Of a DNA stretch of 64,000 nt, positions 3,997-6,949 are shown piece after piece; position 1 is the stretch's first letter; each line of letters begins with the position of its first letter. The notes beneath the pieces were generated by a model, which ran no database searches, had not been told where the DNA came from, and was given only the letters and a program-made list of their open reading frames with translations. The stretch covers positions 374 through 64,373 of the forward strand of contig JAKJDO010000004.1 in NCBI GenBank assembly GCA_022705905.1, in the 5' to 3' direction. The DNA is from Patescibacteria group bacterium (lineage in GTDB: Bacteria > Patescibacteriota > Patescibacteriia > Patescibacteriales > UBA12075). The translations under genes were made by a program, and so were the position numbers.

Positions 3997-4170
3997 CTAA
4001 AAGCGCCTAGCAGGACGTCTGTCATTGCGCATTGCTCGATGGCAATCACGGCAATAAATCGGCCTGTCGCCATCTGGTTCAAAAGGTAATTCGGTGATAC
4101 TTGCACCGCATTTGGAGCAAGTCCATTCACCTTTTACCATTTGGCGTGGGCTAAAATCTTGGTTACCCAT
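3997..4170 (-). CDS. Small zinc-ribbon protein (CxxC-x17-CxxC), 57 aa, absent from the ORF track
   Basis: Hand translation gives MGNQDFSPRQMVKGEWTCSKCGASITELPFEPDGDRPIYCRDCHRAMRNDRRPARRF*. Intact ATG..TAG, length divisible by 3. Confidence 0.6.
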   Translation of the reverse strand: MGNQDFSPRQMVKGEWTCSKCGASITELPFEPDGDRPIYCRDCHRAMRNDRRPARRF

Positions 4171-4376: not shown

Positions 4377-4658
4377 ATGAAAAAAATAATTTTAACTCAA
4401 TTTTTTGTTTTATTGATCGGCACGGTTTTTGCTTGGTCAAATTTCACTCTAGAATTGTTCAATTGGCTGAACAATAAAGCTTGCACGACTGGGTGTTCTA
4501 TTTCTGGAGCTGGTAATGTCGCCAATCCATTTTTAACCCCCTGTTTTTACGGAGCTGTTTTTTTTGTCCTGGCTTTTGCGTTGAGTCTAGCGATGGTTTT
4601 AATAAATAAGACAAAAATAAAGGCAGAAGAAAAAAAAGTTGAGACAGATATTAAGTAG
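4377..4658 (+). CDS. Small two-TM membrane protein, unknown function
   Basis: 93-aa ORF with two hydrophobic segments and a Lys/Glu tail, followed directly by a terminator hairpin. Confidence 0.5.
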   Translation: MKKIILTQFFVLLIGTVFAWSNFTLELFNWLNNKACTTGCSISGAGNVANPFLTPCFYGAVFFVLAFALSLAMVLINKTKIKAEEKKVETDIK

Positions 4659-4671
4659 TTTTTTAAAAGAC

Positions 4672-4705
4672 AAAATAAAACATCCCGCGAGTACGGGATG
4701 TTTTG
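4672..4705 (+). terminator. Rho-independent terminator (bidirectional shape)
   Basis: CATCCCG-cgagta-CGGGATG hairpin flanked by an A run and a T run. Confidence 0.75.
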
Positions 4706-4742
4706 TATATCCAAAATTAAATAATGTTTTTTCTAGTTCCAG

Positions 4743-5134
4743 TAAAAAAGGTGATGGTTTTTAAAACCTTCACCTTTTGCGCTCTATAACTATGACGTGC
4801 TAGTTATCGTCAAATCCAGTCCATGATTGAAAATCGTTAAAATTTTAATCAGGATTTGCGTAACTAGGTCCGCCACACCTCCGGAAGTGCTAATCGAAGC
4901 ACTAGAATTATTAACAGCAGGCTAAGCGCCGATGAAATTGCTCTAATCATATATTTTTTGTTTATTTATGATTAGAAGGAAGGCAGCCTGGCCGACTACT
5001 CCAGTGCTTCGTCCCGATTTTTGGGACCCTTCCGCTGTCTGTTGGCGTTGGTCGTCAACAGGCCGAGGAAGGCATTTTTTTTAAGATCTTTTTTAGACCG
5101 CTTTTTAATTGTTTAGGAACTGTTTTGGGTAGCC
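4743..5134 (-). ncRNA. Structured transcript of unknown family (~390 nt); an alternative reading is the mRNA of a 28-codon hydrophobic sORF (4864..4950)
   Basis: Consensus promoter upstream and a hairpin plus U6 terminator at 4743-4776. GC-rich core with at least 5 local hairpins (CTGTTG/CAACAG, GTCCC/GGGAC, CTAATCATA/TATGATTAG, AGTGCT/AGCACT, AACTA/TAGTT). No ORF of 60 aa or more. Confidence 0.45.
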
Positions 5135-5138
5135 TTTT

Positions 5139-5167
5139 ATTATATATCATTTTTTAGATTTTGTCAA
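5139..5167 (-). promoter_or_regulatory. Consensus sigma70-type promoter TTGACA-17-TATAAT
   Basis: Minus strand reads TTGACAaaatctaaaaaatgataTATAAT. Points into the ORF-free structured region. Confidence 0.6.
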
Positions 5168-5357
5168 GTATTTGTACAGTTAACACCACAAAACGATGCT
5201 TGTTAAATGGATCTTTTCTCTGGCGTCATTTTTTTAATTTTTAAATAGCTTCTTTTCAAAATGCGGCTACGGGCTAATAAAAAATTTTACTATTTAGCAA
5301 AAATATAGTAAAATATAAATTGTTAAGCCTAGTATTAATTATTAGTCTTTATTTCTC

Positions 5358-6536
5358 ATGAGTTTTAAAAAAAGATTTTTTGTTATTAAATTATCCGATA
5401 AAATACTTTTGATTTTTTTTGTTTTTTCTACCGTCGCTTTATTTTTAGTAGCCACTATTTTGGGCGGTTCTTGGCAGCAGCTTTTTATTTTAATTACCAT
5501 AGTTTATGCCGCCACCTTTATTTTTACTTACGTGGTTAGCAGTAATTTTTCTAAGAGCTTAATTGACCTGGCCTTAAAAGTACAGGAAATGGGAGCGGGT
5601 AATTTATCAAAGAGATTGGTGACTAACAGGAAGGATGAGGTTGGGCAACTAATTAATTCCTTAAATGAACTAATGAGCAGGTTGCAAACGGGCGTGGCGG
5701 TTGATATTTCCAAACACCGGGAATTGTCTCGGGCTAAAACTGATTTCGTTTCTTTGGCCGCCCATCAGTTGCGCACGCCCCTGTCGATTGTTAAATGGTA
5801 TTCAGATTTTCTTTTGTCTGGGGATGCCGGTAAATTTAGCAAGGAGCAATTAAAGTATGTTGAAGAAATTTTTCGCAGCAACCAACGTTTAATTGATTTA
5901 GTTAATTCATTGCTTGATGCTTCCCGTATTGATCTTGGCACCTTTGTCATTGAACCAAAACCAACCGATGTTATTGAAAGAGCTGAAACCGCTTTATCAA
6001 AATTTTATCCCGAAATAGAAAGAAAAAAAATTAAGCTAGAAAAGCAGTATGACAAGTTTGATAAGCTTAATTTAGATCCTCGTTTGACACAAATCATTTT
6101 TGAAAATATAATTTCCAATGCGGTTGAATATACGCCAATCGGTGGCAAGATTAAATTTATTGTCAAAAAAACAGCAAAGGATGTTTTTATAAAGATATCT
6201 GATACGGGATTTGGCATTCCGCGCGAAGAACAGCCCAAGATATTTACCAAACTTTTTCGCGGCGACATAGCTAAAAAAATCCAAGAGGATGGTTCCGGGT
6301 TGGGGTTGTATGTTGTTAAGGCAATTGTTGAAAAATCTGGCGGCAGAATTTGGTTTGAATCGCCTAGTTTGGAGCTACTACTAGAAGAAAAACAGGACGC
6401 GGATAATTTGCCGTTAGACAAGAAAAACATGGGCACCACCTTTTTTATTACGATCCCTTTAAAGGGGATGATGCCGAAAGAGGGGACAAAAAAATTAGAA
6501 AATCTTAAAAATATTAAAAAATCTAAGCAAGCTTAA
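5358..6536 (+). CDS. Sensor histidine kinase (TM-HAMP-HisKA-HATPase_c)
   Basis: H-box LAAHQLRTPLS, N/G boxes (NAVEYTP, DTGFGIP, GSGLGL), N-terminal TM pair. Confidence 0.85.
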   Translation: MSFKKRFFVIKLSDKILLIFFVFSTVALFLVATILGGSWQQLFILITIVYAATFIFTYVVSSNFSKSLIDLALKVQEMGAGNLSKRLVTNRKDEVGQLINSLNELMSRLQTGVAVDISKHRELSRAKTDFVSLAAHQLRTPLSIVKWYSDFLLSGDAGKFSKEQLKYVEEIFRSNQRLIDLVNSLLDASRIDLGTFVIEPKPTDVIERAETALSKFYPEIERKKIKLEKQYDKFDKLNLDPRLTQIIFENIISNAVEYTPIGGKIKFIVKKTAKDVFIKISDTGFGIPREEQPKIFTKLFRGDIAKKIQEDGSGLGLYVVKAIVEKSGGRIWFESPSLELLLEEKQDADNLPLDKKNMGTTFFITIPLKGMMPKEGTKKLENLKNIKKSKQA

Positions 6537-6556
6537 GCTTGGTATTATTTAAATAT

Positions 6557-6949
6557 ATGAGTGAAAAAGCTAAAAAAATATTAATTGCCGAAGATGAGGA
6601 AGCAATGTTAGAAGCATTAGCCAGTAAGTTTGAAAAAAGAGGTTTTGCTGTAATTAGAGCTCATGACGGTGAGGAGGGGTATAGTTTGGCTATAAAAGAA
6701 AAGCCAGATTTATTGATTTTAGACATCTTAATGCCGAAAATGAATGGAATGGATTTGATGGAAAAAATTAGACAAGACGATCGTTGGGGCGCTGACGTGC
6801 CAATAGTTATGCTGACTAATATCAGCGATCCGGAGAATGTTTCGCGCGCAGCCATTTGCAAGGTCTATGATTTTTTAGTAAAAACCGATTGGCGCTTAGA
6901 TGATGTAGTGAAATTAGCCGAGGACAAATTAGCCTTCCCCGAAGCTTAA
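6557..6949 (+). CDS. Single-domain response regulator (receiver only)
   Basis: KILIAEDEE...LLILDILMPKMNGMD...PIVMLTN receiver motifs with no output domain. ATG at 6557 preferred over the TTG at 6539. Confidence 0.8.
   Translation: MSEKAKKILIAEDEEAMLEALASKFEKRGFAVIRAHDGEEGYSLAIKEKPDLLILDILMPKMNGMDLMEKIRQDDRWGADVPIVMLTNISDPENVSRAAICKVYDFLVKTDWRLDDVVKLAEDKLAFPEA

Follow-up and report, generated by a model that had tools for sequence, protein, structure and literature searches.

The mRNAs of the type I toxin genes hok, tisB, zorO and aapA1 resemble the locus described here, a minus-strand unit at positions 4743-5167 of a 64,000-nucleotide (nt) stretch of DNA from a Patescibacteria group bacterium (contig JAKJDO010000004.1; the whole stretch is called the window below), in being monocistronic, in having a long structured 5′ untranslated region (UTR) and in burying the start codon. 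In the pairs hok/sok, tisB/istR-1, zorO/orzO and aapA1/isoA1, the likeness extends to a hydrophobic peptide of fewer than 60 residues and to a start sequestered by local and long-range pairing, with helices that exclude each other and may be metastable; the window locus differs from them in that an antitoxin RNA is neither detectable nor conserved, no Shine-Dalgarno (SD) sequence is involved, no similarity to known toxins is seen, and each stretch examined has one copy of the gene, which is under purifying selection. The cspA thermosensor of Escherichia coli, one of the leaders that pair with their own coding region, resembles the locus in its strong promoter, its leader length of about 160 nt, its small protein and its alternative folds, in which the leader and the early coding region set access to the start site, but the protein is unrelated here (no cold-shock domain) and no cold-box or other known motif is present. 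The add adenine and thiM thiamine pyrophosphate riboswitches are similar in their conserved 5′ domain, covarying helices and invariant loop or junction nucleotides, and in a helix that competes with start-region pairing; unlike in these riboswitches, there is no ligand and no Rfam family here, the anti-start pairing reaches codons 10-19 and not an SD, and the predicted ground state is a fold other than that of the putative sensor. RNAIII/hld, SgrS/SgrT and SR1/SR1P are also highly structured, strongly transcribed RNAs, about 400 nt long, in which a small open reading frame (ORF) is embedded, but the window locus offers no evidence of a trans target, and its conserved motifs are located in stems and not in exposed loops.

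The window locus is probably a single-gene mRNA of about 390 nt, strongly transcribed and self-folding, which limits its own translation and encodes a conserved small membrane protein, frameshifted in this species; in kind, it is a cis-structured small-protein mRNA. A first-pass annotation, made from the letters of the window, had taken it for a structured RNA of unknown family containing a 28-codon hydrophobic ORF. The transcription unit and its RNA elements, in the order of transcription, are as follows:

5139-5167, minus strand: sigma-70 type promoter, TTGACA at 5162-5167, 17-nt spacer, TATAAT at 5139-5144, 12/12 match.
5073-5132, minus strand: A-rich 5′ leader before P1, with a window-specific small hairpin insertion and an A8 run.
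5028-5072, minus strand: P1, long imperfect hairpin CCUUCC...GGAAGG, -17.7 kcal/mol, z = -3.7.
5011-5027, minus strand: P2, short hairpin GUCCC/GGGAC directly 3′ of P1, -6.7 kcal/mol.
4998-5010, minus strand: 5′ arm of the long-range helix LR1, GAAGCACUGGAGU, pairing with ORF codons 15-19 (minimum free energy (MFE) folds of homologues, RNAalifold and pair counts).
4985-4990, minus strand: 5′ arm of the long-range helix LR2, CAGGCU, pairing with codons 10-12.
4941-4977, minus strand: P4, hairpin of 10 base pairs with a 15-nt A-rich loop and the AUG (4948-4950) in its 3′ arm, -8.6 kcal/mol, z = -7.05.
4918-4923, minus strand: 3′ arm of LR2, AGCCUG, in codons 10-12.
4896-4908, minus strand: 3′ arm of LR1, AUUCUAGUGCUUC, in codons 15-19.
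4744-4778, minus strand: intrinsic mRNA terminator, a hairpin followed by U6, -14.6 kcal/mol, z = -4.3.

Orthologues of the histidine kinase gene that flanks the locus (5358-6536) are assigned by name to Candidatus Falkowbacteria or Parcubacteria. Contigs of the same species were available from independent assemblies (n = 10); nine of them span the spacer at 4659-5357 and are 100% identical there, and the tenth (L006) covers just the last 258 nt of the spacer, upstream of the promoter. Relatives carrying the element were reached via the kinase orthologues (L011, L012/L013, L015) and added by a protein-pattern scan of metagenomes (L024, L025/L026, L027/L028, L029), and the divergent members L030, L031 and L033 were included too. 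The unit layout, consisting of promoter, leader of 120-190 nt, ORF and terminator, is common to all relatives, and the structured domain always precedes the same ORF.

In all ten relatives, the ORF is uninterrupted and comprises 52-54 codons, so the absence of a long ORF from the transcript, noted at first, holds for the window genome but not for the family. Pairwise ratios of nonsynonymous to synonymous substitution rates (dN/dS) are 0.06-0.34; the proportion of synonymous differences (pS) reaches 0.88, with synonymous sites near saturation and many pairs saturated. The numbers of variable alignment columns at the three codon positions are 37, 24 and 49 of 51, the third position varying most, and the amino-acid identity across the relatives found is 42-72%. 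These substitution patterns indicate that the ORF is under purifying selection and that the locus is a protein-coding mRNA. In the window, the gene is represented by two parts:

4864-4950, minus strand: first part of the ORF, 28 codons plus TAG, MIRAISSALSLLLIILVLRLALPEVWRT, corresponding to family codons 1-25 (helix 1) and three out-of-frame codons.
About 4874-4877, minus strand: 2-nt TG insertion, GAGGTG[TG]GCGG; the window has GAGGTGTGGCGG against GAGGTGGCGG in L024 (alignment).
4790-4876, minus strand: second part of the ORF, GTG...TAG, 28 codons, MADLVTQILIKILTIFNHGLDLTITSTS, corresponding to family codons 26-52 (helix 2) in the other frame.

The 28-codon ORF from ATG (4950) to TAG (4864) is therefore present as it had been described, but it is not a whole product, being the front half of a frameshifted gene of 52-54 codons. 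All nine other contigs of the species that cover the insertion site (L001-L005, L007-L010) have the same TG insertion. In a comparison of the window with L024, the closest relative with an intact ORF, the region 3′ of the frameshift read in the corrected frame has a pS of 0.42 and a proportion of nonsynonymous differences (pN) of 0.058, which implies either a recent frameshift or continued translation of the second half. Judging from the sequence, the protein of the window species would be truncated, made as two pieces or lost; the RNA elements are all intact in the window despite the split ORF.

An exhaustive HMMER search found 24 library representatives at E ≤ 0.001, including 22 small family members (50-131 amino acids (aa) as called) and two giant repetitive proteins, and a profile search extended the family to at least 64 clusters, all labelled 'hypothetical protein' and all from Falkowbacteria or Parcubacteria. 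A word-indexed single-sequence search with the L011 protein returned one match; the profile and exhaustive searches were required. Pfam and NCBIfam contained no meaningful match at E ≤ 10 for three family sequences, and the repaired window sequence gave weak matches only, to a plant-virus movement protein (E 0.27) and to TatA (E 3.8). The family consensus is MxKAFSGALSLxLTILVLRLALPEV..LL.EII.K.L.I....LD. AlphaFold2 modelling predicted helices at residues 2-21 and 23-52 with a break at the invariant proline (mean predicted local distance difference test score 79), and a PDB fold search with this model matched nothing. The protein would be a small membrane protein of about 53 residues, in which a hydrophobic helix is followed by the invariant proline and an amphipathic helix. 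The family is unannotated and so far found only in Candidatus Falkowbacteria and related Parcubacteria; a literature search for 'Falkowbacteria' and 'small protein' returned nothing on such a protein. Gene callers often start the family ORF too far upstream, within the structured leader, so that the called products have 59-131 residues (P0125, P0130, P0131, P0132, P0137-P0139, P0141 and P0166), and predict no gene at this locus in the window species; with upstream over-extension on the one hand and absent calls on the other, the family is systematically mis-annotated or missed.

The transcription signals agree with the initial description, which had proposed a consensus minus-strand promoter firing into a structured stretch that ends at a hairpin plus U6. 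All 12 positions of the promoter match the consensus, and the predicted transcription start is at about 5132 on the minus strand. The perfect TTGACA-17-TATAAT arrangement occurs twice in the window, against zero expected by chance, one of the two occurrences being the promoter of the locus; TTGACA, a 17-nt spacer and a -10-like hexamer are found at the equivalent position in 10/10 relatives. The 390 nt of the minus strand fold with -124.6 kcal/mol (z = -7.4), and the plus strand of the same stretch folds with z = -5.35. The terminator at 4744-4778 begins 12 nt past the family stop codon, and in each relative a hairpin with a T-run follows about 6-15 nt after the stop, with differing stem sequences. 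The core, described as far more GC-rich than its surroundings, does exceed the flanking spacers (GC content 0.38-0.49 against 0.17-0.34) but is level with the neighbouring coding DNA (0.40-0.52).

Homologous loci had been proposed as a means of detecting covariation, and pairing with changes on both sides was found in P1, P2, LR1, LR2 and P4. P1 was predicted independently in each homologue with this leader type; 12 of its 14 pairs keep pairing with changes on both sides (10 sequences), and its 3′ strand carries a near-invariant GGAAGGG. P2 is a perfect hairpin at the equivalent place in 10/10 homologues of this leader type, and its stems are unrelated in sequence between homologues, e.g., UGAUGC/GCAUCA and GUGGUAUAA/UUAUACCAC. 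Independent MFE folds recover both hairpins in ten homologues with this leader type; the 5′ domain of L029 is built differently. The leader upstream of P1 is variable among the relatives. The window-specific insertion at 5089-5105 (minus strand) adds about 18-21 nt that contain the small hairpin GGUCUAAAAAAGAUC; it is missing from L011, L015 and L012 in the alignment, L024 has a non-homologous stretch there, and the A8 run sits just downstream of it.

Pairing between the UTR and the coding sequence appears in the MFE folds of 9/11 sequences, and not in those of L031 and L033, though complementary segments are present in both. In the model-fitted alignment of eight sequences, 92.8% of the cells of P4 are paired and two of its pairs have changes on both sides; for LR2, 80.9% of the cells are paired, with two-sided changes in 3/6 pairs, and L011 has AGACUU/AAGUCU there via a synonymous AGC -> AGT change. 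Taken jointly, LR1, LR2 and P4 have 87.9% of cells paired, compared with 35-44% for slid partners, and 11 pairs with two-sided changes, compared with 1-6 for slid partners; none of 500 shuffles reached the observed values. LR1 was also assessed by an alignment-free register test anchored only on the UAGUC motif of the leader and the AUG: the four closest sequences gave 13, 12, 13 and 13 of 13 pairs, four distant members 9-10 and L012 11 at a 2-nt offset, against a background of about 5.5. Several compensatory changes are synonymous codon changes, e.g., GTG -> GTA and CTT -> CTG in L015. The covariation supports P1, P2, the AUG hairpin P4 and the long-range helices LR1 and LR2. A helix in which the CUGGAGUAG segment would close the 5′ end was rejected as inconsistent between homologues. 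For the 3′ half of the ORF, a conserved structure was rejected as well, since only one weak helix was seen there and conserved codons explain it.

The placement of the AUG in the 3′ arm of a hairpin, already recognised from the sequence of the window, was confirmed with a stem of 10 base pairs at 4941-4977. With an unpaired probability predicted at 0.004, the AUG is more tightly paired than the start codon of any of the 48 other genes of the window assessed, for which the minimum is 0.015. In 7/11 sequences, the AUG is paired with a probability above 0.97 (unpaired 0.002-0.026). The lack of an SD sequence before the ORF, also pointed out at first, is correct but uninformative: GGAG, GAGG or AGGA within 20 nt upstream is found for 2/49 window ORFs of at least 150 aa, the other 47 likewise being without an SD, and the start regions of the window are A/T-rich and unpaired. 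A subgroup of Parcubacteria has been reported to be without the anti-SD motif (PMC9297842), and the near-absence of SD sequences in the window fits this reported loss.

Two further leader elements would take part in an alternative fold:

4988-5004, minus strand: P3, weak 4-bp hairpin CUGG-AGUAGUCGG-CCAG with the conserved loop UAGUC(G), -2.4 kcal/mol.
4976-4984, minus strand: pyrimidine tract c, GCCUUCCUU, just 5′ of P4, complementary to the GGAAGGG of P1 (strand b).

The UAGUC loop motif of P3 is present in 10/11 sequences, and one stem pair covaries (U-A, C-G and G-U, as read from the alignments). Because P3 has nucleotides in common with the 5′ arms of both long-range helices, its formation and theirs are mutually exclusive. 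The b x c duplex has an energy of -11 to -15 kcal/mol in 11/11 sequences, with the compensatory pair GGGCAU/AUGCCC in L030; with b x c enforced, a three-way junction with P2 and P3 is predicted, and the coding-region strands are freed.

A mechanism can be proposed from these elements. The near-consensus promoter would drive a transcript of about 390 nt, the leader of which (120-190 nt) would fold into the conserved hairpins P1 and P2; the segment 3′ of P2 would pair over a long range with codons 10-19 via LR1 and LR2, and P4 would hold the AUG. If initiation in these bacteria proceeds without SD sequences on open A-rich start regions, such a fold should limit ribosome loading, and the gene would then be highly transcribed and translated little or conditionally. 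More speculatively, as LR1 and LR2 exclude P3, the GGAAGGG of P1 could re-pair with the CCUUCC tract beside the AUG hairpin, and the resulting three-way junction might release the coding-region strands.

Several observations weigh against this self-limiting mRNA. In four distant members, the AUG has an unpaired probability of 0.38-0.89 and is not strongly paired, so the occlusion is a property of a sub-clade and not of the whole family. The accessibility of positions -12 to +13 is 0.535 in the window, i.e., average (genome mean 0.50), because the A-rich loop just upstream of the AUG is open. P3 alone is no more stable than shuffled sequence, the b x c fold costs 7-18 kcal/mol and P4 stays in it. 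Activation by 5′ truncation was considered and rejected, since removal of the 5′ arm of P1 leaves the AUG locked in silico in the window sub-clade; together with the cost of the b x c fold, this means that no driver of the switch emerges from the predictions. The structure comparison draws on a small sample of 11 distinct sequences, the window and ten relatives, the pair counts of LR1, LR2 and P4 come from a fitted alignment of eight of them, and all structures are computational predictions.

Searches for known RNAs bear on whether the transcript could be non-coding. Rfam 15 at gathering thresholds yielded three tRNAs only in the whole window; at E ≤ 10, the 4227 families gave only terminator-type chance matches in 4600-5300, and six homologous loci gave no match in the leader or the ORF at E ≤ 5. 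ARAGORN found no transfer-messenger RNA (tmRNA), and manual comparison with P4 of RNase P, domain IV of the signal recognition particle (SRP) RNA and the tmRNA 5′ end gave short chance resemblances that were dropped. No family was matched among RNase P, tmRNA, SRP, 6S, type I toxin-antitoxin RNAs and riboswitches, in agreement with the first-pass annotation. Its further suggestion of an unclassified housekeeping or regulatory RNA does not stand, as the relatives show a conserved coding mRNA. It is hardly credible that the locus is a housekeeping RNA (one of RNase P, tmRNA, SRP and 6S or a new equivalent) with an incidental ORF: the size of about 390 nt, the strong promoter and the fold (z = -7.4) would suit such an RNA, and none was found elsewhere in the window, but neither Rfam at E ≤ 10 nor ARAGORN detected one, the substitution pattern is coding-like (dN/dS 0.06-0.34, third position most variable), and the length and frame of the ORF are kept in ten relatives. 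A dual-function transcript, which would also act in trans by base-pairing or protein binding and stay useful despite the frameshift, is a good deal less far-fetched and still very unlikely. The promoter of consensus strength, rare in the genome, the invariant leader motifs beyond pairing needs and the intact RNA elements beside a broken ORF are what such a function would explain; however, no candidate target came to light, the conserved purine and pyrimidine motifs are found largely within helices and not in loops, protein-level selection accounts for the retention of the gene, and the frameshift may be simply recent.

The resemblance to type I toxin-antitoxin modules, raised at the outset from the layout, is partial: a small hydrophobic protein and an mRNA with a predicted locked structure fit, and neither an antisense promoter nor a conserved plus-strand terminator was detected. 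If the locus were such a module, the protein would be a membrane toxin, the leader would keep its mRNA inert, an undetected antisense or trans-acting RNA would be the antitoxin, and the frameshift would be toxin inactivation. Several features accord with this: the protein is hydrophobic, has two predicted helices (helix 1 hydrophobic) and is shorter than 60 residues; the unit is monocistronic, with a long structured 5′ UTR and a start codon predicted to be buried by long-range pairing; and the loss-of-function frameshift is identical in nine other same-species contigs spanning the site. The plus-strand hairpin plus T8, read earlier as the terminator of an antisense RNA, exists as the complement of P1 (5028-5072) followed by that of the A8 run, but the antisense RNA itself finds no support: no plus-strand promoter reaches 9/12 matches within 4743-5132, and the T-run is species-specific, the A-run before P1 on the mRNA strand having 8 bases in the window and 0-5 in the relatives. 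An antisense promoter-like TTGAC[AG]-17-[AG]ATGAT lies at an equivalent position of the coding region in L015 and L012, a point in favour of an antitoxin, but it is missing from the other six of the eight sequences scanned. The divergent upstream flanks argue against a conserved divergent small RNA, each stretch examined has one copy, purifying selection maintains the protein (42-72% amino-acid identity across the relatives), and neither Pfam toxin families (Hok/Gef, Ldr, TisB, Fst, Ibs, TxpA and others) nor PDB folds were matched; a literature search found no link of type I systems with Patescibacteria. The single copy, the varied contexts and the purifying selection are unlike typical type I toxins. 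With the missing promoter, the variable T-run, the differing flanks, the single copy and the purifying selection, a classical type I module becomes less likely, and this explanation as a whole is considered unlikely. A riboswitch-like switch is also rather improbable; here, P1-P2-P3, or the b x c/P2/P3 junction, would be the sensor of a ligand or factor, and the bound state would withhold the strands of LR1 and LR2 and turn translation on. It would account for a leader conserved while synonymous sites are saturated (CAGACAGCGGAAGG is invariant in five sequences, GGAAGGG present in 9/11 and UAGUC in 10/11), for the covariation of P1 and P2, for the mutual exclusion of P3 and LR1/LR2 via common nucleotides, for the b x c complementarity in 11/11 sequences with its compensatory variant in L030, and for the invariable linkage of the element to the same gene. 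Against it, the regulated protein has no known function from which a ligand could be deduced, Rfam matched nothing in the element, the window (E ≤ 10) or the six homologous loci (E ≤ 5), the alternative fold loses 7-18 kcal/mol in stability and keeps P4, P3 is weak, and the 5′ domain of L029 is differently built. The boldest form of this idea is that the leader represents a translational RNA switch of a new class, confined to SD-free bacteria of the candidate phyla radiation, in which a P1/P2/P3 sensor with invariant GGAAGGG and UAGUCG toggles between the three-way junction and pairing with codons 10-19 and so gates the synthesis of the small membrane protein in response to a signal; it is put forward tentatively, as a long shot, the chance of a genuinely new RNA switch being modest.

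The unit is found in varied genomic surroundings. Synteny of the element with the kinase is restricted to close relatives (kinase identity at least 79%). The element was not found in the fetched stretches of L014, L019 and L020 (kinase identity 61-64%), nor in that of L018, where the kinase identity is 79% but just 934 nt of upstream sequence were available. The copy number is one in the window and one per fetched locus, and the upstream flanks vary between loci (histidine kinase, DUF5661, tRNA and others). In L025/L026 (L026 1-100), the element lies immediately 3′ of a tRNA gene and its terminator, a placement that illustrates that it moves between genomic contexts as a self-contained cassette. 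A search of GTDB representative genomes with the pattern CAGACAGCGGAAGG...TAGTCG(RCC) did not find the element, which is too variable for exact patterns; matches of this DNA pattern in genome and viral contigs were discarded as chance occurrences in high-GC DNA (L021, 69% GC; L022/L023, 54-55% GC). A small ORF of L020 (304-471, minus strand) was rejected as a homologue, its protein being unrelated and its SD normal. This L020 gene (304-560, minus strand) encodes an unrelated 55-residue membrane protein; it has a similarly strong promoter (TTGACA-17-TATATT), its leader is short and its SD is a canonical GGAGG, so that an SD is used for this gene by this one more distant relative at least.

Downstream of the mRNA terminator lies one more element:

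4677-4704, both strands: second terminator-like hairpin, bidirectional, 12-bp stem plus minus-strand T-run, palindromic CATCCCG...CGGGATG.

This hairpin terminates the convergent gene at 4377-4658 (plus strand) and backs up the minus-strand terminator. The convergent gene encodes a predicted membrane protein of 93 residues with a CTTGC motif and without a Pfam match, and is missing at the equivalent position in several relatives. Farther on, 3997-4170 (minus strand) encodes a 57-residue CxxC...CxxC zinc-ribbon protein, annotated on the contig as Pfam zf_Tbcl_2; this gene is kept beside the element in several relatives. The second perfect TTGACA-17-TATAAT of the window (6084-6112, plus strand) falls within the 3′ portion of the histidine-kinase gene; the response-regulator gene (6539-6949) follows about 430 nt farther downstream, and the sequence may be an internal promoter.

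What looked like an orphan RNA gene turns out to hold two previously unannotated items, a small membrane-protein family and a conserved leader, the pairing of which with its own coding region is backed by compensatory synonymous changes. In the window species, the gene is split by a frameshift identical in nine other same-species contigs spanning the site. As SD-guided initiation is mostly lacking, mRNA folding at the start codon may be the main translation control in these bacteria, and the locus may serve as a compact, testable example of control by start-region folding in SD-poor bacteria.

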